Of a DNA stretch of 59,940 bases, positions 3,923 through 59,043 are shown in pieces. A program made the translations under genes and the position numbers. Under the pieces are notes generated by a model, which was given only the letters and a program-made list of their open reading frames with translations, ran no database searches and was not told where the DNA came from. Every line of letters begins with the position of its first letter. Within the stretch, counting starts at the first letter, position 1. This stretch comes from Patescibacteria group bacterium (GTDB lineage: Bacteria; Patescibacteriota; JABMPQ01; JAQVVF01), in the NCBI GenBank assembly GCA_041662665.1, contig JBAZSC010000004.1:76464-136403 (forward strand), written 5' to 3'.

Positions 3923-3963
3923 TTCTGCATTTTCTGCGTTAACTTCTGCGTTTTTTCTGCGAT
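3923..3963. repeat. intergenic word repeat, TTCTGCG(T/A)T family (4 copies)
   Basis: ttctgcattttctgcgttaacttctgcgttttttctgcgatt; the same word recurs at ~25258, ~28900, ~32250. Confidence 0.8.
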
Positions 3964-3994
3964 TAAATTATTTAACAATTTAACAATAGAACAA

Positions 3995-5149
3995 TTGAGC
4001 AATACAACAATTATTGTCCACTACTCTGAAATCGGTCTTAAAGGCAGAAATAGGAATATCTTTGAAAACAAACTAATTAAAAACATAAAAGCCCACATTA
4101 ATCAATTGGGCTCTTTTAAACTTGTCCATTTGCACGATCGTATTTTGATTGAAATCTCTCAACTCTCACCTCTCATATCCCAAGCTCTTCAAAAAACATT
4201 CGGCATCGCCAATTTCGCAATTGCCAAAACAACAAAATTAGATCTAAACGAAATAAAAGAGCAAGTTTTAAACCTCGCCAAAACAAAAGAATTTACCACT
4301 TTTGCTATTCAAGCCAGTCGTTCCAACAAAAAGTTTCCGCTCACTTCTCAACAAATTAACGAACAAGTCGGTGGAGTAATTTTAGATAATTTAAAAAATA
4401 AAAAAGTAAAATTAAAAAATCCTAATTTAACTATTTATGTTGATATTTTAAAAGACCAAGCTCTAATTTATTCTGAAAAAATCAAAACTTTCGGTGGCTT
4501 ACCAACTGGCACAGCAGGCAATGTTATCTCTTTAATTTCCGGGGGCATTGATTCGCCCGTTGCTTCTTTTCAAATCATGAAACGAGGCTGTCAAATTATT
4601 TTTTGTCATTTCCATTCTTACCCGCAGACTTCAATTGAATCACAAGACCAAGTCAAAAAATTAGTTAGTATTTTAGATCAATATCAGCAAAATTCTAAAT
4701 TATACTTAATTCCAATCCTGGACATTCAAAAACAAATTGTTGCCAAATGCTCTGCCAAACTTCGCGTTGTTTTATACCGCAGAATGATGATGCGAATCGC
4801 CACTAAAATCGCAGAATTAGAAAATGCCAAAGCTTTAATTACCGGCGATTCAATCGGTCAAGTCGCTTCCCAAACTTTAGAAAATATTCAAGCAATTTCC
4901 AATGCTACAGACTTGCCAATTTTTCGCCCACTAGCTGGATTAGACAAAGAAGAAATAATAACTTATGCAAAAAAAATAGAAACTTACGAAACTTCAATCC
5001 AACCTTTTGGCGATTGCTGTTCTCTCTTTATTCCAGATAGTCCAGAAACAAAAGCAAAATTAGATGAAGTTTTAAAAAATGAACGAGAATTAGAAATTGA
5101 TAAATTAATTAATGATTCGTTTCAACAATTAGTTATTAAGCAATTTTAA
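3995..5149 (+). CDS. thiI: tRNA 4-thiouridine synthase ThiI (THUMP + PP-loop, no rhodanese domain)
   Basis: YSEIGLKGRNR N-terminus, PP-loop SGGIDSPVA; TTG start. Confidence 0.85.
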   Translation: MSNTTIIVHYSEIGLKGRNRNIFENKLIKNIKAHINQLGSFKLVHLHDRILIEISQLSPLISQALQKTFGIANFAIAKTTKLDLNEIKEQVLNLAKTKEFTTFAIQASRSNKKFPLTSQQINEQVGGVILDNLKNKKVKLKNPNLTIYVDILKDQALIYSEKIKTFGGLPTGTAGNVISLISGGIDSPVASFQIMKRGCQIIFCHFHSYPQTSIESQDQVKKLVSILDQYQQNSKLYLIPILDIQKQIVAKCSAKLRVVLYRRMMMRIATKIAELENAKALITGDSIGQVASQTLENIQAISNATDLPIFRPLAGLDKEEIITYAKKIETYETSIQPFGDCCSLFIPDSPETKAKLDEVLKNERELEIDKLINDSFQQLVIKQF

Positions 5150-5151
5150 AT

Positions 5152-5175
5152 AAAAAAAAGACATTTTATTGTCTT
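5152..5175. terminator. bidirectional hairpin terminator (thiI / 5180..5572)
   Basis: AAGACA-TTTTAT-TGTCTT flanked by an A-run on the + strand. Confidence 0.6.
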
Positions 5176-5179
5176 AATA

Positions 5180-5572
5180 TCAAAGAACTTTGAAAGTAAT
5201 CTTTATGCCTCCAACATGCATAATGTCATACTCAATCAAGATTAGTCCTTCACAAACTTGTTTCATGTCCGCTATAGTAGGACAAAAGAAATCCAGACGA
5301 CGTTCCTGAGCTATGACTTCAATTGCTCCTTGTTCCAAAAGATTTCTAAAAACCATCTCCACATGTTCTATTCCAAGAAAAATCGCAGATTTGCTTAGCA
5401 ATATAACTGCTTTTTTCAAAGCTTCATCACGCCTTGCTTTTTCCCAATCAATCCTTTCTTGCCATTTCCTTTGCTCTTCTTCCAATAGCTTGACTACTGA
5501 AGTAGCTCGCTGAAAAAAACATAACTGATTTCCCAAATCCAATGACATTTTTCTTTTTTCATCCTCTGTCAT
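5180..5572 (-). CDS. orphan protein, SD-led cassette
   Basis: AGGAGGGAGG immediately upstream of ATG; E/R/W/C-rich composition unlike neighbours; terminator downstream. Confidence 0.6.
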   Translation of the reverse strand: MTEDEKRKMSLDLGNQLCFFQRATSVVKLLEEEQRKWQERIDWEKARRDEALKKAVILLSKSAIFLGIEHVEMVFRNLLEQGAIEVIAQERRLDFFCPTIADMKQVCEGLILIEYDIMHVGGIKITFKVL

Positions 5573-5641
5573 TTCCTCCCTCCTTTGAAGGTAAAAAGAA
5601 CTTAATACAATAATATATCAGTAAAAATCATAACGCGCAAT

Positions 5642-5667
5642 AAAAAAAGAAGACATCAAAGTCTTCT
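5642..5667 (-). terminator. rho-independent terminator of 5666..6154
   Basis: AGAAGAC-N6-GTCTTCT followed by a T-run on the minus strand; overlaps the stop codon. Confidence 0.6.
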
Positions 5668-7500: not shown

Positions 7501-7566
7501 AAGATTAAAACACAAATCCCAAATCCCAAATTCCAAACAAATTACAAATCACAAAATACAAAAAAA

Positions 7567-7589: not shown

Positions 7590-7611
7590 ACTTTATAAAC
7601 TTTATAACTTT

Positions 7612-15488: not shown

Positions 15489-16394
15489 TTATAAATTCTC
15501 TAAAATTAATTCCACTATCAAATCAGAAACATTTTTGTGAGCTTCTTTAAAAGCTTCCGGATAAAATCCAGGAAAATTATTTTCATCAACTATTTTATAA
15601 CCATCAGCTGTCTTAATAAAATCAAAACCAACAATTGATTTGTCTAAAATTTCTGCTGCCTTTTCGGCATAATCTTTAACAGGCGACGGATCAACATAAT
15701 ACGCTCCTCCACCTGCTCCTTTAACATCATACACTTTCCAATCAGCAAATTTTTCTTCTTTTTTCCTATATCCATAGACAATTTTTCCGTTGATTAATGT
15801 TGTACTTATCCAAGCTTTTTTGTCATTTTCATAAAACTTTTCTACAAAAATTTTATTCTGACCATAAGATTTTAACATGCCAGCTATATCTCTTAAAGTT
15901 TCAAAATCTTTAACTTTTATAATTCCTCTGCCAAAACTTCCAAATCTCGGTTTAACTAAAATCTCTTTCCAGTCATTCAGAATCTTTTTCATAGTTTCAA
16001 GATCATCATAAGGAATCAAAGCAAAATCAGCAATTGGCAAACCTTTTTCTTTCAAAGTCACATGCGTCTTAAATTTATCATTAATCAATTCTAATGATTC
16101 AGGATTTTTAATAACCTTTATTACTTTTGATAAAGCTTTGTATTCATTTATATTTCTGCCAGGCGCATACCAAAAGAATAAATCACATTTGCTCAAATTA
16201 ACATTATCGCACCAAAAATCAGTGTTCAGTACTTTTAAATTATTAAAATTAACATTACCTAAAAATTCAATTTCAGAATTCTGTTTCAATTTTTCTTCAA
16301 TTTTCAGAACCTCTTCTTTGCTCAAGAAACCAGTTTGTTTTTTAGTTGAATTATCAATACTTAACAAAAAAATCGCCACTTTTTTCTTACTCAT
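15489..16394 (-). CDS. RimK-like ATP-grasp ligase
   Basis: LVKPRFGSFGRGI, VEKFYE, DENNFPGF segments typical of the ATP-grasp fold. Confidence 0.65.
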   Translation of the reverse strand: MSKKKVAIFLLSIDNSTKKQTGFLSKEEVLKIEEKLKQNSEIEFLGNVNFNNLKVLNTDFWCDNVNLSKCDLFFWYAPGRNINEYKALSKVIKVIKNPESLELINDKFKTHVTLKEKGLPIADFALIPYDDLETMKKILNDWKEILVKPRFGSFGRGIIKVKDFETLRDIAGMLKSYGQNKIFVEKFYENDKKAWISTTLINGKIVYGYRKKEEKFADWKVYDVKGAGGGAYYVDPSPVKDYAEKAAEILDKSIVGFDFIKTADGYKIVDENNFPGFYPEAFKEAHKNVSDLIVELILENL

Positions 16395-20284: not shown

Positions 20285-20347
20285 GCATTCGTATCCGCGT
20301 TAGCATCCATATCGTATCCGCGTCGTTTCCGCAACGTTCCGCGATAA
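20285..20347. repeat. intergenic word repeat, (T)ATCCGCGT family
   Basis: cgtatccgcgttagcatccatatcgtatccgcgtcgtttccgcaacgttccgcg; family recurs at ~21400, ~24668, ~33548. Confidence 0.75.
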
Positions 20348-21361: not shown

Positions 21362-21489
21362 TTTTTATTCTATATTATTACAACTAAATTTTTAGAGAGT
21401 ATCCGCGTTATATCCGTATTTTCCGCGTAAATTTATTATGAGTATTAAATTATTTTTCAAATATTATAAAAAATCAACGAAATTATTTA

Positions 21490-22914: not shown

Positions 22915-22924
22915 AGATTATACT

Positions 22925-23022
22925 CTAAATCCTAGGTCCTAAACAAATCCAAAACTTAAATGGTCAATAATTTGATTTTGAACATTTACATTTTGATATT
23001 TAAATTTGTTTAGGACTAAGAA
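22925..23022. repeat. long imperfect palindrome built from CCTAAA/CAAAT words
   Basis: GTCCTAAACAAAT (22937-22949) pairs perfectly with ATTTGTTTAGGAC (23004-23016). Confidence 0.75.
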
Positions 23023-23023
23023 T

Positions 23024-24547: not shown

Positions 24548-24757
24548 AACTTTTTTTAATTTTTCATTTTCTCCAAAAATCAACATACCCGCCACTATCT
24601 TGTCAAGTTTTATAATAGAATTATAACAAAATAAATCAAAAAAACAAAGTAAATGTCAAGGTTTTTTAATTATCCGTTTGCCATCCGTTGAATCCGCGTA
24701 AAAGACGATAAAAACAAAAAACTTTTAAAGTTTTAAATAATTAGTTTGTACCGTTAA

Positions 24758-37545: not shown

Positions 37546-37553
37546 TTTATTTA

Positions 37554-37626: not shown

Positions 37627-37663
37627 AATATAATAACAAAATAACTAAATTAGAAATGAAAAA

Positions 37664-38275
37664 TTACTTTCTTTCTTCTGTCTTGCTTAACGTATCAGTC
37701 ATTTTTACGTATAAATAAACTAATAACACGCCAATTAATGCCCCACAAGTATTCATTAACAAATCATTTGGCGTATCAAAGCGATCTCCTAGTCTATTAT
37801 TGCTTAGAAAAAAACTTTCTGAATATTCTTCAATCTCGTACAAGACTCCAAGAAAACAAGCTGCAAAAAAGGCATAACTTCCAATCAAATATTTTTTAAA
37901 TTCAACTCTTCTTCTTTTTAATACAGCGCAAAGTATGAAGAATATTAATCCAGCAACTGAAGCTCCGCCTAAGAAATGAGCCATTTGATCATACCATGAA
38001 AATCTGCCATACCATTTAAAAATATCTCCAAATGCATCAATCAACACATTTCCTAATGGAAACAAGAATACAAAACTTGGAATAGTATAATTAAATTTCT
38101 TTTTACAATACCATAACACAAATTCTAAAGCAATCCAAACTACAATTGATGTCAAAGCTAATCCAAACCAGCTAAATTCAAGTTCAAAATGTAAGATGCC
38201 AAAAAGATTAGCTAGCTCAAAACAAGCAAGTGAAGCAAAAGCAATCCTTACAAACCACAGAATTATAATATTCAT
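37664..38275 (-). CDS. polytopic membrane protein (weak VanZ-like resemblance)
   Basis: Five to six hydrophobic helices; FDTPNDLLMNTCGALIGV C-terminal motif. Confidence 0.55.
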   Translation of the reverse strand: MNIIILWFVRIAFASLACFELANLFGILHFELEFSWFGLALTSIVVWIALEFVLWYCKKKFNYTIPSFVFLFPLGNVLIDAFGDIFKWYGRFSWYDQMAHFLGGASVAGLIFFILCAVLKRRRVEFKKYLIGSYAFFAACFLGVLYEIEEYSESFFLSNNRLGDRFDTPNDLLMNTCGALIGVLLVYLYVKMTDTLSKTEERK

Positions 38276-38284
38276 AATAATGAA

Positions 38285-38548
38285 TTATTGTAATCCGCCT
38301 CCAAATAAGCCTTTTAGCATATTTGGTAATGTATGTTGTAAAAAACCAGTCATGTATAATGTTGAAACAGCAGCAATTAAAACGCCCAGCAGTTGCCAGA
38401 ACAATCTTCCGCCACCAAATGTCCCAAAATATTTTTGAGCAAAGCTTGGACTTCCGACATTATTAATTAACCATTCAGATTTTAAAGTTACAAAAACTCC
38501 AATTGCAATACCTATTAATCCTAAAAATATTTGGCCGATTAAAGACAT
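38285..38548 (-). CDS. small membrane protein
   Basis: Two to three hydrophobic helices, backbone-like AT-rich codon usage. Confidence 0.5.
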   Translation of the reverse strand: MSLIGQIFLGLIGIAIGVFVTLKSEWLINNVGSPSFAQKYFGTFGGGRLFWQLLGVLIAAVSTLYMTGFLQHTLPNMLKGLFGGGLQ

Positions 38549-38551
38549 GAA

Positions 38552-38630
38552 ATAACATTTAACATTTAACTTTTAACAGTTAACTCGCTATTTATAGCGT
38601 TAATTGTTAAGTGTTAATAGTTAATTGTTT
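38552..38630. repeat. palindromic word repeat (TTAAC/GTTAA family)
   Basis: aacatttaacatttaacttttaacagttaactcgc tatttata gcgttaattgttaagtgttaatagttaattgtt. Confidence 0.75.
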
Positions 38631-38633
38631 ACC

Positions 38634-38710
38634 TGGTGGGCGCACTTAGATTCGAACTAAGGACCTCGTCATTATCAGTGACGCGCTCTAACCAACTGAG
38701 CTATGCGCCC
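38634..38710 (-). tRNA. tRNA-Ile (anticodon GAU), CCA encoded
   Basis: GGGCGCA/TGCGCCC acceptor, D-arm GCTC/GAGC, anticodon loop CTGATAA, T-arm CTTAG-TTCGAAT-CTAAG, ACCA end. Confidence 0.9.
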
Positions 38711-38858
38711 ATAAATAAATAACAAAATAACTAAATTTTAAATAACAAAATATCTTTTGCTTTCCTTACTATTTTAACATCAAAAAATATTTCTTTCAAG
38801 TCTTTATGTCCAAAAGTTTTAAAAAGTGCAATATGTGTGTGCACATTACCCAAGAATC

Positions 38859-38887
38859 TTGACAATCTGCTTGCCTTATTGTATCCT
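38859..38887 (+). promoter_or_regulatory. sigma70-like promoter (TTGACA-17-TATCCT)
   Basis: Upstream of 38938..39600. Confidence 0.45.
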
Positions 38888-38937
38888 GATTTAAACGTTC
38901 TTTCCGACAATTTCCTAGCCAGAGGAGGAGGAAAGCG

Positions 38938-39600
38938 ATGAGCAACAGAGAGCCAGAAATCACACTGCCAGTAGTCATTCAACGGGACTTTTTCACTTCT
39001 CTTTCCGACGATCAAGCTATTCAGATCTTGATTCCTATCATTGGCGAAAAAGAAGCTCGCGCTTATGTCCAGAAGTGCCGTTATTTTGCAATTGACCATT
39101 TCAACAACTACGAGGGTACAATCTTTTGGTTGGTTAAAGCTGGCTACACACTGAAACAGCATGCTTCCAAACTTGGTCCGTGCTACAAGAATTTCGATTA
39201 TTTACAGACCTGGAATTTCAACGATGAGCCAACTTTTGACAGTCTTGTTTTCTGGGTTCCCAGACTTGTTCCTGACGGCATTCGAAAAACAGCAAATGAA
39301 CAGTTGAATTATCTCGCCAGACTTAGCAAGAAGTACGATCTGCCAGCCGATCATCTTACTGATTTCGGCAGTGTCACCTTAAACAGCGGTCTCATTTTGA
39401 GCTACTTCAACCAGACAAAGGAACGAGTTCCTCCGGATCGGTTGTGGATCAGGACTTCTGCTCGCGGCTCCGATGGCAGTCGTTTCGACCTGGGCGACTT
39501 TGATGAGCGAGGCCTCTACTGCAGCGGCTACGATTTGGGTGGCGGTTTCGTTGACGATCTTGGCTGTTTCGCTCTAGGTATTGTAAAGCTCGCAGCATAA
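38938..39600 (+). CDS. orphan 220-aa protein, SD-led cassette inside the 16S/tRNA-Ile spacer
   Basis: GAGGAGGAGG 7 nt before ATG; highest GC of any CDS here by eye (3' end near 50%); hairpin terminator follows. Confidence 0.6.
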   Translation: MSNREPEITLPVVIQRDFFTSLSDDQAIQILIPIIGEKEARAYVQKCRYFAIDHFNNYEGTIFWLVKAGYTLKQHASKLGPCYKNFDYLQTWNFNDEPTFDSLVFWVPRLVPDGIRKTANEQLNYLARLSKKYDLPADHLTDFGSVTLNSGLILSYFNQTKERVPPDRLWIRTSARGSDGSRFDLGDFDERGLYCSGYDLGGGFVDDLGCFALGIVKLAA

Positions 39601-39623
39601 TTATTTAAATTTTTAGTTCTTTC

Positions 39624-39652
39624 AACTCTTGATGTATTTCAAGAGTTTTTTT
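39624..39652 (+). terminator. rho-independent terminator
   Basis: AACTCTTGA-N6-TCAAGAGTT then a T-run. Confidence 0.7.
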
Positions 39653-39657
39653 ATTTA

Positions 39658-39735
39658 GAGCTTCGGAACGTCGGAGCTTCGGAACGTCAGAACGTCAGAA
39701 CGTCCGACGATCCGATTTCCGACACTCCGAAGCTC
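39658..39735. repeat. palindromic word repeat (CTTCGGAACGTC family), GC-rich
   Basis: gagcttcggaacgtcggagcttcggaacgtcagaacgtcagaacgtccgacgatccgatttccgacactccgaagctc. Confidence 0.75.
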
Positions 39736-39925
39736 TAAAAACGAAAACCAGCGCTTTTACGCTGGTCAAAAATAATATCCAATATCTAATATCCGTAATA
39801 TTCGAAGATACTTTGATAATCAAAAAGTGATAAGAGGGTCGATTAATTCCTTACATAATGAAAATAAATTCATCTCGACAGATCAATAAAAATCCATAAG
39901 ACTTTCAGAGATCAATTCTCCCTAG

Positions 39926-41541
<1,616 letters not shown>

Positions 41542-41765
41542 TAAATATCTATAATTAATAAATTAATCATAGATCAACTAAAAAATTTAAAGTAAGCTTG
41601 TTAGCTCAAAATAAACGGAATTAACGTAAAACTCTTATCACTATTTAATTATCAAAGTGCGAGAATTATAGACTGATTCTTTTTAATTTTTGAAGTTAAA
41701 AAATATCAAGCTACAATTTTCATAGCTATTTTTACAGATTTACTTGTAAGTAATTTAGTACTTAA

Positions 41766-41794: not shown

Positions 41795-41961
41795 GTCAAT
41801 ATCATTTAATTGTGGATAACTTGTGTAAACAGTTAACAATTAACTTTTAACACTTAACTTTTTTATCTGTCATCCCGAACCGCAGTGAGGGATCCCGAGA
41901 AGAAGCAAACAATCACATGATTCATCCGGAGTTTATCATGGAAAATTATTTTTCGAAAATG

Positions 41962-43019: not shown

Positions 43020-43763
43020 TTATTTTTTAATTTTAACGTGTTTTTTTTTCCATTCTTCAATTTTTTCATGATCGCCAGACAATAAAACTTTAGGTACAGA
43101 AAGAGTCGTAGTTTTTAAAGTTTGTAATTTGGAATTTGTAATTTGTTTGGGATTTGGGATTTGGAATTTTTCAGGTCTAGTATATTGTGGATACTCCACA
43201 TAATCTTTATCAACAGAAAAAGTATCATCAAGAGCAGAATGTTCATGTCCCAAAACACCAGGAATCAATCTTGTCACAGCTTCAACCAAAACCATAGCAG
43301 GCAATTCTCCACCAGATAAAACATAATTACCTATTGAAATTTTTTCATCAACAAATTTATCTATGCGAGCATCAAAACCTTCATATCTTCCGCATAACAA
43401 AATAATATTATCAAGTTTAGACAATCTCATCGCCATTTTCTGATCAAGTGTCTTGCCAGCCGGAGTTAACATGATGATTTTAGATTTCGAGTTGTTATTT
43501 TTGACTTTAGATTTAGGAGAAATATTTTTGACTTTAGATTTTAGACTAGTAATCGCTCGATAAAAAGGCTCAACTTGCAAAATCATGCCCTGCCCGCCTC
43601 CGTATGGTTTATCATCAACTTTGCTGTGTTTATCTAAAGTATAATCACGTAAATTATGAATATTAATTTTAATCAAATTTTTCTTTTGTGCGCGCGACAA
43701 AATAGATTCAGAGAAATATGAATCAAATATCTTTGGAAAAATTGTTATTATATCGAATTGCAT
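43020..43763 (-). CDS. trmD: tRNA (guanine37-N1)-methyltransferase TrmD, carrying two in-frame word-repeat insertions
   Basis: GGGQGMIL, CGRYEGFDAR, SIGNYVLSGGELPA motifs; low-complexity inserts SLKSKVKNISPKSKVKNNNSKSK and QIPNPKQITNSKLQTLKTTT. Confidence 0.9.
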   Translation of the reverse strand: MQFDIITIFPKIFDSYFSESILSRAQKKNLIKINIHNLRDYTLDKHSKVDDKPYGGGQGMILQVEPFYRAITSLKSKVKNISPKSKVKNNNSKSKIIMLTPAGKTLDQKMAMRLSKLDNIILLCGRYEGFDARIDKFVDEKISIGNYVLSGGELPAMVLVEAVTRLIPGVLGHEHSALDDTFSVDKDYVEYPQYTRPEKFQIPNPKQITNSKLQTLKTTTLSVPKVLLSGDHEKIEEWKKKHVKIKK

Positions 43764-43770: not shown

Positions 43771-43835
43771 TTAACTAGTAATTAGTAACTAGTAACTAGT
43801 CGTCGTTCTAGTTACTAATTACTGATTACTAGTTT
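43771..43835. repeat. palindromic word repeat (TAGTAAC family)
   Basis: ttaactagtaattagtaactagtaactagt cgtcgt tctagttactaattactgattactag. Confidence 0.75.
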
Positions 43836-45369: not shown

Positions 45370-45490
45370 GTTTTTAAAAGTTAATTATTTTAAAAGAATC
45401 TTTAATACATAATAGCATAAAAAAAACGGTTTAGAAATTAATGCATTAGAAATTTAATAAAAATTAGAAATTGAAAATTAGAAATTTCAT

Positions 45491-48079: not shown

Positions 48080-48186
48080 TATAAATTACAAATTCCAAAT
48101 CCCAAACAAAACACAAATTACAAATTACAACAATATTTTGTGTATTGTGATTTGTAATTTGTTTGGAATTTGGTATTTGGGATTTA
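48080..48186. repeat. long imperfect palindrome of CCAAAT/ACAAAT words in the smc/rlmE divergent spacer
   Basis: ataaattacaaattccaaatcccaaacaaaacacaaattacaaattacaa ... gtgatttgtaatttgtttggaatttggtatttgggattt. Confidence 0.8.
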
Positions 48187-48242
48187 TTATTTTAGTCTAT
48201 CAAATTTTTTTATTCTTGACAAATTGAGTATTCTGATTAATA

Positions 48243-48929
48243 ATGGACTGTATGTCAAGACACTATCAATTCCAAGATTATTATTTTGAATTAGCAAAAC
48301 AAAAAGGCTACAATGCCCGATCAGTCTTTAAATTGCAAGAAATACAAGAAAAATACCGTATAATTAAGCCAAATCATTATATTTTAGATATTGGATGTTT
48401 CCCAGGCTCATTTTTACAAATTTTATCAACTTGGGTTGGAAAGAATGGCAAGGTCGTAGGCTTTGATATTAAAAAAACGAAAGATTTGGGCCTTGAGAAC
48501 GTGATTACATTTGTTGCCGATGTTAATGACCTAGAGAATGTTCGAGAGCAGTTGGACAACCTTGCGAACAAACAAAAAAACAATAAAACAAGAAAACAAG
48601 AGGTCGTTAACCAGTCTAACTTATCTAATAAGTCTAACATATCTAACCAGTTCAACGTTATCATCAGCGATATTGCGCCAAACACATCTGGTCATCCTGA
48701 GTATGATCAATATCAATCAATTTTGTTAAACGAAAAAGTTATTGAATTAGCTAAAACAAATTTGAAAGATGGCGGAAATATGATTTTGAAAATTTTTCAA
48801 GGTTCTGATTTTAACGAATTTCTAGCCAAGTTAAAAAAGTCTTTTAAGAAAGTCAAGATATTCAAGCCAAAAGCATCACGTGCCAGAAGCAGTGAAATGT
48901 ATTTGTTATGTTATGAATTTAAGAAATAA
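48243..48929 (+). CDS. rlmE: 23S rRNA 2'-O-ribose methyltransferase RlmE/FtsJ with a low-complexity insertion
   Basis: RSVFKLQEI, DIGCFPGSF SAM motif, SDIAPNTSG, K..KPKASR; insert NKQKNNKTRKQEVVNQSNLSNKSNISNQ. Confidence 0.85.
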   Translation: MDCMSRHYQFQDYYFELAKQKGYNARSVFKLQEIQEKYRIIKPNHYILDIGCFPGSFLQILSTWVGKNGKVVGFDIKKTKDLGLENVITFVADVNDLENVREQLDNLANKQKNNKTRKQEVVNQSNLSNKSNISNQFNVIISDIAPNTSGHPEYDQYQSILLNEKVIELAKTNLKDGGNMILKIFQGSDFNEFLAKLKKSFKKVKIFKPKASRARSSEMYLLCYEFKK

Positions 48930-48967
48930 ATGCACTTTAAAAATTTGCCTTCAGCGAAGGAGGAAAA

Positions 48968-49168
48968 ATGCACAAGTTAAGAGGAATATTTTGTTTTTTT
49001 CTAATGTTACTGATTATGATTAGCATTGATTGGTCTACTTTCAAATTATTTTATCACTTGTCAGATTCTTATGGGATATTTTTTTATGCGCCAATTCCCG
49101 CTATATCTCTTTTGTTGAGCATTTTTGTTGCAATATCCGTATATCTTAAAATCGGAGGAGAATTTTAG
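48968..49168 (+). CDS. small 2-TM orphan protein
   Basis: GAAGGAGG SD 5 nt upstream of ATG; two hydrophobic helices. Confidence 0.45.
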   Translation: MHKLRGIFCFFLMLLIMISIDWSTFKLFYHLSDSYGIFFYAPIPAISLLLSIFVAISVYLKIGGEF

Positions 49169-49186
49169 TCCGAAAGGAGGGACGAC

Positions 49187-49438
49187 ATGGCCTGGAGTGC
49201 GGCACAAGCAATTCGAGATTATCTGGCAGGCAAAGAATTGAGAATGATTAATTTTTGGTGCGCAGTCAATCCTTATATGCAAGGATACAAAGAAAAGAAT
49301 GAGTTGCCAGAAGTTGACGAGCAGACCTGGAAAGATCTTTTTGATGAGTGTTCATATCTCGTTGAAAGTGGTAGTATGTGCGGGACAATTCATAGAGTAT
49401 TGCCTTTGTCAAAGCAGGAGAACAAATGCAATATCTGA
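49187..49438 (+). CDS. small orphan protein
   Basis: AAAGGAGGG SD; C/W-rich 83 aa. Confidence 0.5.
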   Translation: MAWSAAQAIRDYLAGKELRMINFWCAVNPYMQGYKEKNELPEVDEQTWKDLFDECSYLVESGSMCGTIHRVLPLSKQENKCNI

Positions 49439-49785
49439 TGGCAATTAGGCAATTTGTTGATAGCATCGCCCATTTTGAAAATGAAAGTCATGAAAGGTGG
49501 TTCTACATTAGTCTTAGTGCTTTCGTGATCAGTCTAATTTTGCAAATATTTCGAAAAACTAGATTCCCTTTCGTATTCTTATCTCTAGCTTTTTCGCATT
49601 GTTTTACTTCTATTAGTGCATTTGTAATTGTTGTCTTGATGCAAATAAAGAGTGAAGCATATTCTATCAATTGCATTTGGTTTAATACTGTTATGGTAGT
49701 AATCTATATTGCGCTTTACGGTCTTGCTATCGTAATTAAGAAATTGAAACCAGAATTAAAAGTAAGTACCCTTGAAGAGCATTAA
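49426..49785 (+). CDS. orphan membrane protein (3-4 TM)
   Basis: Start overlaps the previous stop region; CAGGAG upstream; hairpin terminator GAGC-ATTA-AGCTC then T-run at ~49775-49798. Confidence 0.5.
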   Translation: MQYLMAIRQFVDSIAHFENESHERWFYISLSAFVISLILQIFRKTRFPFVFLSLAFSHCFTSISAFVIVVLMQIKSEAYSINCIWFNTVMVVIYIALYGLAIVIKKLKPELKVSTLEEH

Positions 49786-49804
49786 GCTCTTTTTTTATTT
49801 TTAC

Positions 49805-49833
49805 TTGAAATTATCTTAAGACAGGTATAAAAT
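49805..49833 (+). promoter_or_regulatory. sigma70 promoter TTGAAA-17-TAAAAT
   Basis: Upstream of 49883..50161. Confidence 0.5.
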
Positions 49834-49882
49834 AGAGCATTAGTGAATGTTCTTTTCTCAAGGGAGGAAGGAGGGAAAGAGA

Positions 49883-50161
49883 ATGCTCGGCAAGAGATTT
49901 CCAGTCTGGGTTGGAGTCTATGATAAGACAGCAAAGATCTACGAAATTTTCCGGATTGTTCGTGGTGAGAAACAAGTTGGTATCAGGATCAAGTTGGAAA
50001 TGTCGATTGATGAACAGAATAACGAAATTCTCTGTCAAGGAGAAAATATCAGTATGCACCTTCATTCATTTCATGAATTCAAACTTTCCGAAAATCTCGA
50101 AGCTCTTGTCGCTCGGCAAAAAAATGAAATCGTCAGCTGGATCAGGAGACGAATCCTTTAG
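49883..50161 (+). CDS. orphan 92-aa protein, SD-led cassette
   Basis: GGGAGGAAGGAGGGAAAG leader before ATG 49883; terminator 50170-50193. Confidence 0.55.
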   Translation: MLGKRFPVWVGVYDKTAKIYEIFRIVRGEKQVGIRIKLEMSIDEQNNEILCQGENISMHLHSFHEFKLSENLEALVARQKNEIVSWIRRRIL

Positions 50162-50169
50162 CACTATCT

Positions 50170-50193
50170 AACCTTGTTAATCAAGGTTTTTTT
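50170..50193 (+). terminator. rho-independent terminator
   Basis: AACCTTG-TTAAT-CAAGGTT then a T-run; same stem as the terminator at 494-519. Confidence 0.7.
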
Positions 50194-50262
50194 ATTGATA
50201 AATTTGACAAAAAATTTGACAAATCTATTGAAAATAATCAAAAAAAATGTTATACTTAAAAT

Positions 50263-50658
50263 ATGAGTAAAGATAATATTCGAAAAGTAATGGAATATTG
50301 GCAGGAATCAGCAGAGCAAGATTTTAAAATCGCAGAATATCTTTTAAAAGGAAAAAAGTATTCTGCAAGCTTATTCTTTTGCCATCTTATGATTGAAAAG
50401 ATTCTAAAAGCTCTTGTTGTGAAAAAGACTAAAAAGCATTCTCCATACACCCATAAATTAGTTAACCTAGCAAAAATAGTAAATCTAAAACTAACAAATG
50501 AACAGATTGATGATTTAACAACAATAACCGAATTTAATATCGCTGGCAGATACGATGAAATAAAATTTTCTTTTTATAAAAAGTGCACTAAAGAATATTC
50601 TGACAAATATTTTAAAATTTCTAAAAATCTCTATTTTGACTTTAAAAAACAATTATGA
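50263..50658 (+). CDS. HEPN-domain protein (toxin component of a HEPN/MNT pair)
   Basis: AEQDFKIAEYLL...CHLMIEKILKALV...YTHKLVNL pattern of the HEPN family. Confidence 0.7.
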   Translation: MSKDNIRKVMEYWQESAEQDFKIAEYLLKGKKYSASLFFCHLMIEKILKALVVKKTKKHSPYTHKLVNLAKIVNLKLTNEQIDDLTTITEFNIAGRYDEIKFSFYKKCTKEYSDKYFKISKNLYFDFKKQL

Positions 50659-50975
50659 CAAAAAAGGTAAAAAAAAGCATTGAACAATATATCAATATTC
50701 TAAAAAAAGATAATCTTCCAATTAACGAAGTGATTCTTTTTGGTTCACAAGCCAAAGATCAAGCCCATGAATGGAGCGATATTGATATTTGTGTAATCTC
50801 GCCAAAATTTAAAGACAGTTTTAAGGCTTTGCATTATTTGCTAAAAAAGTCATATGAAGTAGAAGACAATATTATCGAACCGCATCCATTCAATCCGAAG
50901 GACTTTAGTAATAATAATGATCCTCTTGTCTGGGAAATCAAACAAACTGGCAAAGTAATTTACAAAAAACAATAA
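50655..50975 (+). CDS. minimal nucleotidyltransferase (MNT antitoxin)
   Basis: LFGSQAKDQAHEWSDIDICVI (GS-X10-DxD) motif; 4-nt overlap with the HEPN gene. Confidence 0.8.
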   Translation: MTKKVKKSIEQYINILKKDNLPINEVILFGSQAKDQAHEWSDIDICVISPKFKDSFKALHYLLKKSYEVEDNIIEPHPFNPKDFSNNNDPLVWEIKQTGKVIYKKQ

Positions 50976-51077
50976 AATTTTAAAAGGCCATTAGTATTTA
51001 ACTTCTGGCCTTTTTTATTTAAACAAAAAACTAGCCGGTAGCTAGTTATTTTTAATTTTTCATTTTAAATTTTTAAT

Positions 51078-51579: not shown

Positions 51580-51692
51580 TTTTCAATTTACAATTCTCAA
51601 TTTTCAATAAATTATCAATGAACAATTTTCAATTAGTTACGACTTTGAAAACTGAAAATTGATAATTTATTGAAAATTGGAAACTGGTCATT
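51580..51692. repeat. long palindromic word repeat (TTGAAAAT/ATTTTCAA family)
   Basis: TTTTCAATAAATTATCAAT pairs perfectly with ATTGATAATTTATTGAAAA. Confidence 0.8.
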
Positions 51693-51698: not shown

Positions 51699-52394
51699 TT
51701 ATTTCTTCCACTCTTCCCTCTCAATCGCATTCTTCGCAGCATTTACTTGTGCTTCTTGTTTTGAATCTCCTTCACCTTCACCAAGTAATTTTTTTTCTAA
51801 ATATACGCCAATTTTAAATTTTCTTGCATGATCTGGTCCCCATTCTTTCAAAACTTGATATGTTGGAGTAACCTTTAAAGCATCTTGGATCTCTTCTTGT
51901 AATCTTGATTTTGGATCAATATATAATTTTTCGTCTAAAATCTTTTTTAATTCAGCAATAATATGTTTTTCAATGAAATCTTTTGCTACATCCCAGCCTT
52001 GATCTAAATAAATTGCGCCAATTACAGCTTCAAATGCATTAGCCAAAATAACATCTCTAGCTTTGCCAATATCTTTTGCTTCTCCTCTAGATAAGTATAA
52101 AAAATCATCATAACCTAATTCTTTCGCGTGTTTTGAAATCATGTTTGTATTAACAAGCGCAGATCTCCAGTTTGTTAAATCTCCTTCTGGATTTGTAAAA
52201 TTATTATACAAATGCTGAGTCACAACCAATTCAAGAACTGCATCTCCCAAAAATTCTAATCTTTCATTATTATCAAGTGGAAAGCTTGTATTTTCATTTA
52301 AATAAGAACGATGAACTAATGCTTGGTTAAGCAGTTTAATATTATTGAACTTTATTCCGATATTTTTCTCTAGTTGTGTAAAATCTTTGTCCAT
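51699..52394 (-). CDS. rnc: ribonuclease III
   Basis: NERLEFLGDAVLE signature, C-terminal dsRBD. Confidence 0.9.
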   Translation of the reverse strand: MDKDFTQLEKNIGIKFNNIKLLNQALVHRSYLNENTSFPLDNNERLEFLGDAVLELVVTQHLYNNFTNPEGDLTNWRSALVNTNMISKHAKELGYDDFLYLSRGEAKDIGKARDVILANAFEAVIGAIYLDQGWDVAKDFIEKHIIAELKKILDEKLYIDPKSRLQEEIQDALKVTPTYQVLKEWGPDHARKFKIGVYLEKKLLGEGEGDSKQEAQVNAAKNAIEREEWKK

Positions 52395-52401
52395 ACGTTT
52401 T

Positions 52402-52500
52402 AGAAAACAGAAAATAGAAAATAGAAAAGAGTAGATAATTAACTGTTTTCTGTTTCCTGTTTTCTCTTTATAACTTTATAAACTTTAAAAACTTTATAAC
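52402..52500. repeat. palindromic AACAGAAAA words followed by CTTTATAA words
   Basis: agaaaacagaaaatagaaaatagaaaagag ... ctgttttctgtttcctgttttctc, then tttataactttataaactttaaaaactttataac (also seen at 7590-7610). Confidence 0.75.
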
Positions 52501-52959: not shown

Positions 52960-53058
52960 ATAATACGAATGACGATACGAATAATGCGAATGATACGAAT
53001 TACGAATAATTAATTCAGCGTATATCAGCGTTAGAAATCAGCGTTTAATCAGCGCTTG
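52960..53058. repeat. word repeats ACGAAT then CAGCGTT
   Basis: atacgaatgacgatacgaataatgcgaatgatacgaattacgaat ... cagcgtatatcagcgttagaaatcagcgtttaatcagcgc. Confidence 0.75.
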
Positions 53059-53433: not shown

Positions 53434-53465
53434 TTGACTTCTAGCAAGGGGGGGGGGGGTAGAAT
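53434..53465 (+). promoter_or_regulatory. promoter-like TTGACT / TAGAAT pair separated by a 20-nt spacer containing a G12 homopolymer
   Basis: TTGACT 53434-53439, G12 53448-53459, TAGAAT 53460-53465. Confidence 0.45.
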
Positions 53466-53909: not shown

Positions 53910-54000
53910 TTACATAAAAATCCCGCACAAACGGGATTTTTTAATATCATAATATCCGTAATATTCGTAATTTCCGAATTTCACAATTTCCGAATATCCG

Positions 54001-55484: not shown

Positions 55485-55547
55485 AAAATTAGTAATTAGT
55501 AATAAGTAACTAGTAACTAGGGCGACGTAGTCGATGCTAGTTACTAA

Positions 55548-56087
55548 TTACTTTTTACTAGTTATCTTATTGATTATTTTATTAATTTGCTTAACTAATT
55601 CTTTTCTATTGCCGCTATTATCAACCACAATTTTTTGTTCACGTATTGGTTCAAATCTAGATTTGATAATATGATATGTTTTCATTGTTACTTCGCTTTC
55701 TTTTGCTTTAAATCTCGCTTCAATTCTTTTCTCTGTAATCTCTTCATCGCATTTCACATAAATAATATACAATTTTGTCTTAAACAATTCAGCCAGTTTT
55801 TTTGCTTGATCAACATATGCTTTCTTGAAAAATGTCGCATTCAAAATAACACTTTGGCCATTCATCAATCTTTTTGCACCATTAGAAAACAAAGTATTAT
55901 AAACTGAGCTCTTAACTTCGCGAGCCCAAAAATTTTTATTCTTCAATTCATCAATAATTTTCTTAGTTGGCTTTAATTGATCTGATTCTATCATCTGCTC
56001 CTTTAATTTCGCTCTCAACATTTCGCCAACAGTACTTTTGCCAACGCCAGGAAGGCCACAAATCAAAATCAACATAACAATATTCAA
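55548..56087 (-). CDS. P-loop kinase / AAA-type ATP-binding protein
   Basis: ICGLPGVGKST Walker A near the N-terminus; TTG start at 56087 or ATG at 56075. Confidence 0.7.
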   Translation of the reverse strand: MNIVMLILICGLPGVGKSTVGEMLRAKLKEQMIESDQLKPTKKIIDELKNKNFWAREVKSSVYNTLFSNGAKRLMNGQSVILNATFFKKAYVDQAKKLAELFKTKLYIIYVKCDEEITEKRIEARFKAKESEVTMKTYHIIKSRFEPIREQKIVVDNSGNRKELVKQINKIINKITSKK

Positions 56088-56100
56088 TATTTAATATTCA

Positions 56101-56188
56101 ATATCCTAATATCTCAATATCCTAATATCTCAATATCCTAATATCTCAATATCCTAATATCTCAATATCCTAATATCTCAATATCTCG
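56101..56188. repeat. perfect tandem repeat, 16-nt unit ATATCCTAATATCTCA x5 plus a partial copy
   Basis: Units at 56101, 56117, 56133, 56149, 56165; degenerate copies at 56079-56100. Confidence 0.9.
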
Positions 56189-56679: not shown

Positions 56680-56801
56680 GAAAATAAGTTAATTAGTAAA
56701 CTAGTTACTAGTAACTAGTTACCAGTAACAATCTTATTATATACAAAATAATCAAAAAAAACAAAAAAACCAGCTAAAAAACTGGTATATAATAAAGAAC
56801 G

Positions 56802-57227
56802 TCAAACTGAAGAGAGCTTTGCCTGCAACCATACCTCTGCTTCCGAACGATCTTTCGTAACATAGAAAAGTTCATCATCTTCAGGGATTCCTGTGAATTC
56901 ATCCCTCGAAGGCTCTTCAACGTAAAAGGAAAAGTATTGAGTTGCCTCTCCTTCTTGTCCGTTATAAACAAGCCGTACAAGCTGTTCATTTCCAAGACCC
57001 GAAAATTCGAATCTAGAACGGATCTTATCGTCGGGGTCAAGATAGTTTGGCATCATTGGAGAGACCGGAAATACCTTTCCAGATGCCACCTCTTCTCGAT
57101 GATTGCCTTTTTTGAAATATGCTATCCAGGCGAATGCCGTTGCTTCCAGCAGTCGATTTCTTGCTTCCTCTTCCTTTTTCAGTGCTTCGCTCCAATCTAC
57201 ACTCAATTGCTCGATGACAGTCATCAT
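56802..57227 (-). CDS. orphan protein, SD-led, translationally coupled to 57224..57493
   Basis: GGAAGGAGGAAGG inside the end of the upstream gene; ATGA overlap; hairpin terminator at ~56768-56790. Confidence 0.55.
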   Translation of the reverse strand: MMTVIEQLSVDWSEALKKEEEARNRLLEATAFAWIAYFKKGNHREEVASGKVFPVSPMMPNYLDPDDKIRSRFEFSGLGNEQLVRLVYNGQEGEATQYFSFYVEEPSRDEFTGIPEDDELFYVTKDRSEAEVWLQAKLSSV

Positions 57228-57493
57228 GACCTTCCTCCTTCCTGAGCTTTCTTCATTGATTCATATTCAGCCTGAAAGAACTGCGTTGCCTCGATCTTCA
57301 ACCTTTCAGCATCTTCAGGCATACAGCGCACGATCAAGAAATGTCTTTCGCCTCCAAAATCAAACGTATGTGGCCAAGAAATCTCAATGTGTTGTTCTTG
57401 AAAATGAAAAAACGTTCTTCGCAATACTTCTTGATCTCTTGCAGTCGGCCCATCAATGGACAACAGTACAAACCAGAAAGGTTCCTTACCCAT
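57224..57493 (-). CDS. orphan protein, SD-led cassette
   Basis: GAGGAGGGAGAG before M13 (MGKEPFWF); ORF-track start 57529 overlaps the -10 element. Confidence 0.55.
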   Translation of the reverse strand: MGKEPFWFVLLSIDGPTARDQEVLRRTFFHFQEQHIEISWPHTFDFGGERHFLIVRCMPEDAERLKIEATQFFQAEYESMKKAQEGGRS

Positions 57494-57527
57494 CTCTCCC
57501 TCCTCTGTGCTCTTGGGACAATACAAC

Positions 57528-57556
57528 AATCTAGCACAAAAATATTATTTTGTCAA
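57528..57556 (-). promoter_or_regulatory. sigma70 promoter TTGACA-17-TAGATT
   Basis: Minus-strand reading upstream of 57224..57493. Confidence 0.5.
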
Positions 57557-57624
57557 TGACACTGTATATCTAAACAAAAAAGCGCGATTATCTCGCGCTT
57601 TAATTACTAATTACTGATTGATAG

Positions 57625-58914
57625 TTACTTCGTCTCTTCAATACAAGTCTTGCGTAACATTTCAAATACTTTTTTATTTTGCATTAATCCTCTTGCATAA
57701 TCCTTATATTCAGGACTCTTAATTTTTTCTACCATTTTTGGATCATGTTGGTAATGAGAAGCAGTATGTTCAATCTCATGTTCTAATTCTTTTTCATCAA
57801 CTTCTATTTTTTCTTGTTTTGTTATTTCTCTCAAGATCAATCCAATCTTAACTCTCTTTTCTGCTCTTTCTCTCAAATCTTTTTTTAATTCTTCCTCAGT
57901 CTTTTTAATACTTTGTAAATATTGATCAAATTGTCCACCAGATGACATTACCATTCCTTTTAATTCTTCAAGCATCTTGTTTAATTCGCTTTCAACTAAA
58001 ACATCAGGAAGCTCAATTGTTGCTTTATCTGCAATCTTGTCCATTAATTCCATTTCAGCTGATCCTCTTGCCTTTTCTGTCGCTTCTAATTCCATATTCT
58101 TCTTTATTTCAGATTTTAATTCAGCAATGCTTGTAAATTTGCCTAAACCTTTTGCAAATTCATCATTTAATTCTGGCAAATGTCTCTCATTAACAGATTT
58201 TACTTCTACCTTAAATTCAACTTCTTTGCCAGCCAAGTTTTTTTGATGATAATCTTTTGGAAAATTTAATTTAAATTCTTTTTTATCTAATGCTTTCAAG
58301 CCAATCAATTGATCTTCAAATCCAGGAATAAATCTGCCTTCGCCAATCACAATTGGATGATCAACGCTTTGTCCTTTATCAACTGGAATATTATCCAAAA
58401 AAGTTTTGAAATCAACAACAACCATATCGCCTTTTTGTGCCGGTCTTTCAATCTTATGTGTAATTGTTCTGCTTTCTTGCAATTGTTTTAAAGCAGCATC
58501 AACTTCACTATCTTTAACTTCAACTTTTTTTTCTTTAACTTTAATAGATTTGTAATCAGGTAATTTAAATTCAGGCAATAAAGCAACTTCAGCAGTAAAA
58601 ATTAATGGATTATTAGGCGCAATTTTCTCAACATTAACTTTTGGTTGGCCAATTGCTTCTAATTTATTATCAATTATTGCTTTGGCATACATTTGTGGCA
58701 ATACAATTGCGCAAGCTTCTTGCCAAACTCTCATCTCGCCAACTTCTTGCTTCACAATATTAGCTGGAATATGGCCAGGTCTAAATCCAGGCATTTTCAT
58801 GTCTTTAGAAATATTTCTTGATGCCAATTCCAATCTACCTTCAATCTCTTTTGGCTCAACTTCAATTCTAATTTTTACGCTTGATTTTGGTAATTTTTCG
58901 ATATTTGCTTTCAT
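57625..58914 (-). CDS. tig: trigger factor
   Basis: N-terminal ribosome-binding region with GFRPGHIP, central FKBP-like domain, C-terminal arm domain. Confidence 0.9.
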   Translation of the reverse strand: MKANIEKLPKSSVKIRIEVEPKEIEGRLELASRNISKDMKMPGFRPGHIPANIVKQEVGEMRVWQEACAIVLPQMYAKAIIDNKLEAIGQPKVNVEKIAPNNPLIFTAEVALLPEFKLPDYKSIKVKEKKVEVKDSEVDAALKQLQESRTITHKIERPAQKGDMVVVDFKTFLDNIPVDKGQSVDHPIVIGEGRFIPGFEDQLIGLKALDKKEFKLNFPKDYHQKNLAGKEVEFKVEVKSVNERHLPELNDEFAKGLGKFTSIAELKSEIKKNMELEATEKARGSAEMELMDKIADKATIELPDVLVESELNKMLEELKGMVMSSGGQFDQYLQSIKKTEEELKKDLRERAEKRVKIGLILREITKQEKIEVDEKELEHEIEHTASHYQHDPKMVEKIKSPEYKDYARGLMQNKKVFEMLRKTCIEETK

Positions 58915-59043
58915 AATTTAATTTAAATAATATCTCTAATTCTATCAGAAAATCTTTCAAAGTCAAGATTTTACTTTGTCCGCCGATTTATCCACCGAAG
59001 CTAAAGCGAAGGTGGAAGCTCAGAAGAGCGAAGGCGGAAAATA

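Follow-up and report, generated by a model that had tools for sequence, protein, structure and literature searches.

Tandem-word arrays and palindromes in the intergenic DNA of a Patescibacteria genome and their likeness to repeats flanking two small gene families

Ribosomal RNA (rRNA) intervening sequences (IVSs) are horizontally transferred elements, regarded as selfish, that RNase III excises from the RNA (PMC4990558). The IVS of Coxiella burnetii is described as such an element; it has an S23p open reading frame (ORF), and RNase III cuts its stem, an inverted repeat of 28 bp. Earlier authors suggested that these IVSs are mobile, with the ORF serving mobility (PMC4990558). Here we describe tandem arrays of short words, many of them paired with their reverse complement as palindromes, in the intergenic DNA of a Patescibacteria group bacterium (contig JBAZSC010000004.1; the whole stretch analysed, 59,940 nucleotides, is called the window). 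We consider it probable that these arrays are gene-less miniature copies of IVS-like selfish hairpin elements that have also been reshaped by slippage.

Repetitive extragenic palindromic (REP) sequences, REPINs and bacterial MITEs (miniature inverted-repeat transposable elements) resemble the arrays in being short non-coding hairpin repeats, dispersed in intergenic DNA as singlets and inverted doublets, with many copies per genome that turn over fast from one relative to another, and with gene-bearing relatives that have the same repeats on either side (PMC3116915, PMC2817692). Unlike REPs and REPINs, which are imperfect palindromes of 20-40 bp with a conserved GTAG or CGTC head, the arms in the window are 25-60-nt periodic word arrays that share no GTAG/CGTC head or end, and many unrelated word families coexist in one genome. 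Contiguous 7-bp units, direct and inverted, also form the heptad operators of the ribbon-helix-helix protein omega of pSM19035, which binds them cooperatively as a small oligomeric protein. These heptads offer a model for how element-encoded proteins might read the arrays, but dozens of different words are in use, their positions are not promoter-specific, and scans of window and locus proteins revealed no ribbon-helix-helix gene.

Cyanobacteria reportedly carry the STRR heptamer repeats, said to have been described by Mazel in 1990. TAACTGA heptamer repeats occur in Beggiatoaceae, Cyanobacteria and Bacteroidetes (PMC4679880), and heptamers are the commonest long simple-sequence repeats of prokaryotes, ascribed to polymerase slippage, in the account of Mrazek (2007) given in PMC4679880. 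The arrays resemble the STRR and TAACTGA repeats as intergenic tandem heptamers, often just upstream of start codons, with a patchy phylogeny that suggests horizontal spread without a known mechanism. They also have the tandem 5-11-nt units (mostly 7 nt), the length beyond chance and the intergenic position of prokaryotic long simple-sequence repeats in general. In descriptions of the STRR and TAACTGA repeats, a single exact word is repeated directly, whereas the units here are degenerate, a reverse-complement partner turns many arrays into long hairpins, and two families are tied to specific small genes.

Word arrays and palindromes of the window

Arrays were defined with Tandem Repeats Finder (TRF) as repeats of period 6-12 with at least 2.8 copies, and each spacer was compared with 30 dinucleotide-preserving shuffles. 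Arrays cover 18.0% of the intergenic bases of the window, as against 0.6% in the shuffles (maximum 1.8%) and 1.0% in coding DNA; this strong enrichment bears out the observation made in an earlier, sequence-only reading of this DNA. All twelve word families that it had named were found where it had placed them. Of the 52 window arrays, 27 have period 7, which dominates, and period 8 comes next with 8. That nearly every spacer is built in this way was overstated, since an array is present in 28 of the 54 spacers that measure 20 nt or more (and in 26 of the 47 that measure 60 nt or more), counted with a TRF setting slightly more permissive than the one used for coverage. The presence of arrays in every spacer context was borne out by the spacer listing: among spacers of at least 20 nt, arrays occur in 19/39 co-directional, 5/7 convergent and 4/8 divergent ones.

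The nearest public relatives are two contigs of Patescibacteria metagenome-assembled genomes (MAGs), JAQVVF010000006 (L001) and CAZNOH010000002 (L002), both syntenic with the window over ~29.6-59 kb. Their aligned DNA is ~80-85% identical to the window and their 16S rRNA genes 97% identical; arrays, mainly of period 7, make up 12-15% of their intergenic bases. The arrays and palindromes of the window are as follows.

3923-3965, plus strand: TTCTGCGTT direct array, x4; unit order common to 32250 and 28900; the same word forms a full palindrome in L002
7512-7566, plus strand: CCAAAT/NNNNCAA heptamer array, single arm, from stop codon to conventional terminator; unit order conserved
7590-7611, plus strand: CTTTATAA array
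20285-20343, plus strand: ATCCGCGT direct array, x5, period ~11
21400-21428, plus strand: ATCCGCGT direct array, x3
22915-23023, no strand: CTAAATC palindromic element; fold z -5.9
24668-24700, plus strand: ATCCG(C/T) direct array, x3, upstream of a TTGACA hexamer
25258-25300, plus strand: TTCTGCG direct array, x4
26094-26151, no strand: AAAGTCTAAAATC palindrome; fold z -5.2
28900-28942, plus strand: TTCTGCGTT direct array, x4, in a divergent spacer
29130-29210, no strand: AACAGAAAA palindrome within the PBP1A 5' leader; fold z -6.8
32250-32292, plus strand: TTCTGCGTT array, x3-4, flanked by two convergent conventional terminators
33550-33583, plus strand: ATCCGC array, x3, abutting a start codon
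34164-34196, plus strand: AATATC(N2) array, x4
35142-35250, no strand: NNNNCAA (CCAAAT) palindrome with 50-nt arms, filling the DAGK-bactofilin gap; short-read contigs break there
35662-35731, no strand: TAGTAAC palindrome that takes up the bactofilin-DUF4446 gap; z -5.9; reproduced without change by 3 independent assemblies
38553-38629, no strand: GTTAAC palindrome adjoining tRNA-Ile; orthologous copy kept in L001
39657-39740, no strand: palindrome of the GC-rich word CTTCGGAACGTC; z -8.9; same family in the L002 genome, at 1700-1788 of L015
39774-39800, plus strand: AATATCC array downstream of the 16S 3' end
41828-41862, plus strand: GTTAAC direct array
43121-43169, minus strand: NNNNCAA array in frame in the TrmD coding sequence, giving 11 extra residues in the interdomain region; present in L001, absent from L002
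43772-43834, no strand: TAGTAAC palindrome with a conserved terminator on one side and the start codon of TrmD on the other; z -8.0; other words in L001 and L002
44387-44413, plus strand: TAGTAAC single arm, a ~31-nt clean insertion when compared with L001 and L002; a 12/12 promoter match lies just downstream
45435-45486, plus strand: TTAGAAAT array
48081-48187, no strand: NNNNCAA (CCAAAT) palindrome in the divergent SMC/RlmE spacer; z -7.9
48570-48647, plus strand: two word arrays in RlmE/FtsJ, encoding a 25-residue in-frame insertion absent from L001 and L002
51573-51704, no strand: TTTTCAA (NNNNCAA) palindrome with 60-nt arms in the DUF456-RNase III gap; z -11.3; family present in the adjacent L001 spacer
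52401-52469, no strand: AACAGAAAA palindrome at the nusB-rnc junction; folded
52466-52499, plus strand: CTTTATAA array, x4
52960-53008, plus strand: ACGAAT array, x5; single arm of the GxxExxY-element terminal inverted repeat
53010-53054, plus strand: CAGCGTT array, x4
53945-54000, plus strand: AATATCC/AATTTCCG array from stop codon to terminator
55487-55564, no strand: TAGTAAC palindrome whose right arm gives the upstream gene its stop codon; z -6.9
56078-56187, plus strand: AATATC array, 16-nt higher-order repeat x6.9 with 96% matches; a short-read contig ends inside
56694-56729, no strand: TAGTAAC/GTTACTA mixed array, identical in an independent assembly
57601-57624, plus strand: TAATTAC array between a terminator and the trigger-factor stop; L001 and L002 have a CAAGATA/CAAAT array there

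Palindromes had been taken for the usual form. About 12 loci are palindromic, but out of roughly 36 array loci this is only about one third, and the TTCTGCGTT, ATCCGCGT, AATATCC, ACGAAT, CAGCGTT, TTAGAAAT and CTTTATAA arrays of the window are direct-only. All twelve word palindromes that were folded gave long hairpins (z-scores -4.1 to -11.3), in support of spacers in which recurring word families make 30-60-bp imperfect hairpins. The palindrome loops are GC-richer than the arms in the window's close clade and often hold CGAC/GTCG (35696-35700, 43800-43807, 51633-51644 and 55521-55536; also loops in L001, L002 and L015), a motif that was not seen among the wider set of palindromes or in more distant relatives.

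The arrays are real and not an assembly artefact. Four independent assemblies (Logan, JGI, ENA) traverse two TAGTAAC-type arrays: L019, L020 and L021 cross the array at 35658-35740, and L102 crosses that at ~56690-56730. Each is identical to the window over the array it crosses (overall identity 100% for L019, L021 and L102 and 98.9% for L020), so that the occurrence of the arrays in independent assemblies holds base for base at both. Low-complexity AT-rich DNA can produce assembly or sequencing errors, and independent short-read contigs do break in the longest arrays, ending inside CCAAAT and AATATC arrays. Against such an origin stand the agreement of four assemblies from different sources and the same architecture in L001, L002 and dozens of metagenome contigs, and it can practically be dismissed.

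Dispersal of the arrays and their link to two small gene families

Several families are whole dispersed repeats that sit at non-orthologous sites in related genomes. Word families had been said to recur at unlinked loci, and they do so with the order of their unit variants kept between copies in the case of CCAAAT, ACGAAT and TTCTGCGTT; when units were permuted, the observed alignment score was reached by the original order alone. The CCAAAT array at 7514-7563 is the reverse complement of 48136-48185 at 94% identity, and a copy inside TrmD, found also in the TrmD of L001, is 90% identical. L002 has, at a site that is not orthologous, two copies that match the ACGAAT array at 52962-53008 with 98% identity, although the genes of the two genomes are only ~80-85% identical. 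The CTAAATC element at 22915-23023 aligns over its full length, non-repetitive centre included, at three unrelated sites, namely in the window, in an L001 spacer and in the 16S rRNA of L002. The last of these carries a 161-nt insertion (15700-15860 in native coordinates) in the helix-6 loop, with the CTAAATC palindrome nested in a GC-rich stem.

A second class of dispersed palindromic repeats, GC-rich and represented by CCCGAACCGCAGTGAGGGATCCCG and its relatives, was noted at 41868-41897 and 58950-59040 and, as the reverse complement, at 12518-12547 of L002; one 30-nt stretch of this type is 100% identical to a non-orthologous L002 site.

The sequence-only reading had posed the question of slippage or insertion, to be answered from orthologous spacers. 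The question was apt, and evidence was found for both. Word families usually differ between the orthologous spacers of the window, L001 and L002, and the adjacent conventional terminators are conserved (e.g. TrmD-KhpA). The near-perfect 16-nt x 6.9 array at 56079-56185 points to slippage, whereas the clean presence or absence of whole elements points to insertion. A scan of metagenome contigs with the RNase III protein yielded 80 loci (58-65% amino-acid identity). Among 60 distinct nusB-rnc spacer sequences from this junction, eight genomes have 0-8 nt and the others 44-208 nt, with none of 9-43 nt and a 729-nt outlier in L076. The long spacers are nearly all hairpins built of many different words; a clean case is the 8-nt spacer of L030 against the 137-nt CCGAAAT palindrome of L032. 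Many of the RNase III-linked loci, but not all, carry arrays (L029, L030 and L035 come from genomes regarded as array-free), with period 7 in 155/210 arrays and 68 distinct heptamers, so that the vocabulary is small inside the window, as first described, but not across the 80 related loci. The close-strain pairs (97-99% identity) that could serve for unit-number polymorphism all come from array-poor genomes.

Two spacers of the relatives tie arrays to genes. In the SMC/RlmE spacer of L002, two inverted ACGAAT arrays, the copies 98% identical to that of the window, surround a 144-residue ORF that encodes a GxxExxY protein (TIGR04256; Pfam PDDEXK_3, PF13366; PD-(D/E)XK). In the UDG/IMPase spacer of L001, two inverted CAATAAC arrays surround a 125-residue ORF for a four-helix bundle protein (TIGR02436; PF05635, '23S rRNA-intervening sequence protein'; Avd-like), whose nearest solved structure is the five-chain entry 2rld; the orthologous window spacer is empty.

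Both associations extend well beyond these genomes. The exact 25-mer TACGAATAATGCGAATGATACGAAT from the ACGAAT array occurs in five Patescibacteria MAGs, including genomes of 43-51% GC. GxxExxY homologues were collected at 18 loci (Doudna-, Moran-, Uhr- and Saccharibacteria and one Sphingobacteriaceae), and 18/18 are bracketed near the start and stop codons by inverted TAC(G/T)AAT-type arrays, usually in the layout TCTTTAC(G/T)AATTAC(G/T)AAT-n4-TAC(G/T)AATATAC(G/T)AAT. The ACGAAT array of the window is a single arm of this GxxExxY repeat. For PF05635, 75 usable loci came from Patescibacteria, Omnitrophota, Thermodesulfobacteriota, Nitrospirota, Planctomycetota and others. The inverted-flank alignment score was at least 15 in 56/75 of them, as against 5/75 in the direct-orientation control and 0/75 after shuffling. 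Successive CAA trinucleotides lie at 7-nt spacing 531 times in the PF05635 flanks and 14 times in control DNA, with a secondary 4-nt step that is due to the motif CAAACAA. At least four phased heptamers (median 5) are present in 117/152 arms, and the inner end lies a median of 10 nt from the ORF. The window itself holds seven NNNNCAA chains where 0.15 are expected, at 7513, 35142, 35203, 43122, 48089, 48138 and 51584, and six of the seven share the CAAACAA step. These chains place the CCAAAT/ACAAAT and TTGAAAAT families in the PF05635-flanking type.

The ORF-bearing 23S IVSs with S23p (Coxiella burnetii, Leptospira) are thus matched in two respects: a long terminal inverted-repeat stem with a PF05635 gene in the loop is found in L001 and most of the 75 loci, and a gene-less relative of a window element sits in the helix-6 loop of L002 16S rRNA. 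The window copies differ from these IVSs in being intergenic or within coding sequences, gene-less and present in about half of the spacers; in having arms of tandem degenerate heptamers (NNNNCAA), for which the literature searches made here gave no earlier report; and in the existence of a second family, PDDEXK_3/GxxExxY, with the same layout and a different word. As in MITEs, which share terminal inverted repeats with an autonomous element, the ACGAAT and NNNNCAA arrays match the repeats on either side of the GxxExxY and PF05635 genes. Unlike in MITEs, no target-site duplication was seen at clean sites, and neither partner gene is a known transposase. Among ~40 window and locus proteins, Pfam and NCBIfam scans detected neither a RAYT (Y1 transposase) nor another transposase; the repeat-flanked genes are those of PF05635 and PDDEXK_3. 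As a class, the arrays fit best with hairpin elements of the IVS type that are MITE/REPIN-like and, at the same time, with heptamer simple-sequence repeats. In the literature searches, neither word or heptamer arrays of Patescibacteria nor heptamers flanking PF05635 or GxxExxY genes came up. As far as these searches show, the arms of tandem degenerate heptamers, the second gene family with the same layout and its own word, and the gene-less copies in about half of the spacers of a streamlined Patescibacteria genome are apparently new.

In the IVS-like reading that we favour, a full element would be a long palindrome whose arms are tandem arrays of 7-9-nt words and whose loop holds one small gene, either the Avd-like four-helix bundle (PF05635/TIGR02436) or the PD-(D/E)XK GxxExxY protein (PF13366/TIGR04256). 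Most window copies would be gene-less, miniature or single-arm versions, spread in trans by gene-bearing copies or through template switching or gene conversion. The repeated words may be multi-copy binding sites for the element's oligomeric protein. Arms could expand and keep their symmetry through replication slippage, in which 7-nt units are favoured, together with hairpin-templated correction. Being simple hairpins, such elements may be tolerated in operons, rRNA helices and protein linkers, and the RNase III encoded in the window may cut them out of transcripts as it does rRNA intervening sequences. The TAGTAAC, AACAGAAAA, AATATCC, GTTAAC, TTCTGCGTT, ATCCGCGT and other families are put in the same element class by analogy only, and may belong to it.

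Several observations weigh against this reading. No PF05635 or GxxExxY gene, from which a trans-acting protein could come, was found in the 60-kb window or the 80 RNase III-linked loci, and neither family is a known transposase or integrase. Where inverted arrays lie 200-1000 nt apart, only housekeeping genes were found between them in all fetched loci; these genes (S16, KhpA, RpiB-like) are enclosed by adjacent palindromes that belong to a single family. Of the 12 word families in the window, no more than 2-3 could be connected with a gene family. Many arrays are direct-only, and the clean insertion sites showed no target-site duplication. The TAGTAAC copies showed no conserved unit order on permutation, and the likeness of TAGTAAC to the TACTAAT variant of the GxxExxY repeat, at most a lead, scored no better in alignment than shuffles. 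In array-rich genomes nearly all orthologous junctions are occupied, which could mean selection for hairpins and not saturation by insertion.

The TAGTAAC result would also suit neutral replication slippage in unconstrained AT-rich spacers, with palindromes made by hairpin template switching and no copy-and-paste spread. The dominance of period 7, shared with prokaryotic long simple-sequence repeats at large (Mrazek 2007, in the account of PMC4679880), the recent look of the near-perfect 16-nt x 7 array at 56079-56185 and the 68 different heptamers of related genomes fit such an origin as well. Slippage does not explain why unit order is kept between unlinked copies and between genomes, why ACGAAT arrays at non-orthologous sites are more alike than the genes, or why an exact 25-mer recurs in five divergent MAGs, some of much higher GC. 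Nor does it account for the bimodal junction lengths with their gap at 9-43 nt, for the same element within a 16S rRNA helix, or for the tight association of arrays with two gene families. As a full explanation it is distinctly unlikely.

Terminators, RNA hairpins and operators

A terminator-like role had been thought plausible for the palindromes. They lack the short GC-rich stem and T-tract of an intrinsic terminator and were missed by the terminator scan, and their arms are AT-rich (GC 0.15-0.30). Conventional terminators adjoin arrays at 43855, 57579, 53920 and 32226, and arrays sit between stop codon and terminator at 7512, 53945 and 57601. Elsewhere, a pair of convergent terminators encloses one array (32250), another (44385) is found upstream of a perfect promoter match and others are in 5' leaders (29130, 33550); arrays are also present within the TrmD and RlmE coding sequences and L002 16S rRNA. 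Selection on the stems at the RNA level was probed through mismatches, G-U versus A-C with respect to the direction of transcription, in 31 imperfect palindromes with co-directional flanking genes. With 38 that would be G-U on the transcribed strand and 39 that would be so on the other, the test was without signal and this form of selection was set aside. Sliding one arm by one unit left complementarity nearly unchanged (80 vs 79%, 93 vs 90%).

The palindromes could nevertheless be functional RNA hairpins selected in place, as terminators, RNase III sites or mRNA-stabilising intercistronic stems, with words free to drift. All twelve palindromes tested (12/12) fold far better than shuffles, palindromes span co-directional gaps from stop to start codon, and RNase III is encoded at 51699-52394. 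Orthologous junctions also stay hairpin-occupied in the window, L001, L002 and ~50/60 related genomes even as the words differ. A selected hairpin is, however, at odds with the balanced G-U mismatches, with conventional terminators standing alongside arrays that lack a GC-rich stem and T-tract, and with arrays that occupy coding sequences, rRNA, the space between convergent terminators and sites upstream of promoters. Many arrays, being direct-only, are unable to pair, the one-unit shift costs almost no complementarity, and since eight related genomes have only 0-8 nt at nusB-rnc, the hairpin is dispensable there. We hold this account to be rather unlikely. Because of the terminator scan, the positions, the mismatches, the arm shift and the 0-8-nt nusB-rnc junctions, a terminator or processing function as the reason why the arrays exist is not supported; some arrays may have such side effects.

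Contiguous 7-8-nt units, direct and inverted, could also be operator arrays for host regulators or nucleoid proteins, on the model of the omega repressor heptads or MetJ's 8-bp met boxes. The ATCCGCGT arrays, four in number, are all placed upstream of genes in a single orientation, and the ACGAAT core is exactly conserved across divergent genomes. The ATCCGCGT orientation bias is confounded because almost all genes lie on one strand, and the ACGAAT conservation is accounted for by the GxxExxY gene link. There are far too many different words for a ~1 Mb genome, words are replaced at orthologous spacers, and the positions (3' untranslated regions, between terminators, coding sequences, rRNA) are not promoter-specific; a set of host operators is accordingly very improbable. 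Integron attC sites, DNA-uptake sequences and CRISPR were rejected as candidates: the word families are too numerous, spacers are lacking, and neither integrase nor cas genes turned up among the scanned proteins.

Setting in the window and wider meaning

The window has a GC content of ~31%, and almost all of its genes lie on one strand. Its housekeeping genes include those for PBP1A, bactofilin, TrmD, KhpA, S16, SMC, RlmE, RNase III, NusB, UDG and trigger factor. A 16S rRNA gene lies at 39926-41545 on the minus strand, and the window also holds tRNA-Ile and tRNA-Ala; an Rfam scan of the window found nothing beyond the 16S rRNA and the two tRNAs. Backbone genes have AT-rich upstream regions without a Shine-Dalgarno (SD) motif, whereas the small, variable genes of the cassettes come with strong GGAGG sites, TTGACA-type promoters of their own and compact terminators (SD-led starts are found, for example, at 5572, 34005, 38938, 42042, 49187 and 59119). 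The difference between SD-led cassettes and SD-less backbone had been noticed in the sequence-only reading and was confirmed, but conventional terminators, which it had assigned mostly to the cassettes, are used by backbone genes too. A HEPN/nucleotidyltransferase (MNT) pair, toxin-antitoxin-like, was seen at 50263-50975 within the variable cassette block 48930-51077.

The rRNA region at 37553-41545 is broken up. An SD-led gene of 220 residues (38938-39600), absent from L001, lies between 16S and tRNA-Ile, two protein genes lie between tRNA-Ile and tRNA-Ala, and no 23S gene follows within the window. Beside tRNA-Ala (37553-37627), a partial second tRNA-Ala from the anticodon arm to the 3' end occupies 37450-37552 on the minus strand and is interrupted by a 31-nt AT-rich palindrome; this partial duplication is reminiscent of the second attachment site that arises when an element integrates at a tRNA gene. 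A DnaA-box-like sequence (TGTGGATAA) occurs in two perfect copies, at 29074-29082 and 41811-41819, one of them upstream of the 16S gene and conserved in L001; at least two such sequences occur in 13/100 shuffles, so the number is not significant alone. At 36294-37408, two adjacent short ORFs each match only the N-terminal part of a T2SSE (PilB-like) ATPase, their 5' 60-nt stretches are 93% identical, and the pair looks like duplicated gene fragments. A run of 12 G at 53448-53459, unusual at 31% GC, lies in the promoter region of a 137-residue gene at 53496 and could be phase-variable.

A wider proposal, which we offer tentatively as possible but not likely, is that the arrays and their own small oligomeric proteins (Avd-like pentameric proteins and PD-(D/E)XK GxxExxY proteins) might form a cross-phylum superfamily of ultra-small hairpin mobile elements, with the arrays as binding platforms. 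Such elements would move at the DNA level by a mechanism not yet described, and RNase III would neutralise their RNA. One special case would then be the 23S rRNA IVS; the heptamer repeats known from cyanobacteria, Beggiatoaceae and Bacteroidota would count as others, and gene-less copies would have saturated the intergenic space in this lineage.

In practice, the arrays break short-read assemblies, supply stop codons, insert into rRNA and proteins and mislead the calling of start codons. Patescibacteria genomes are among the most streamlined, yet arrays make up about 18% of the intergenic DNA and roughly 2% of the window, which is unexpected in a genome believed to have little DNA to spare. 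Two enigmatic and very widespread small gene families, PF05635 and GxxExxY/PDDEXK_3, are tied to specific tandem-word inverted repeats, and this link gives both families a testable role and provides a candidate explanation for the intergenic heptamer repeats of bacteria.

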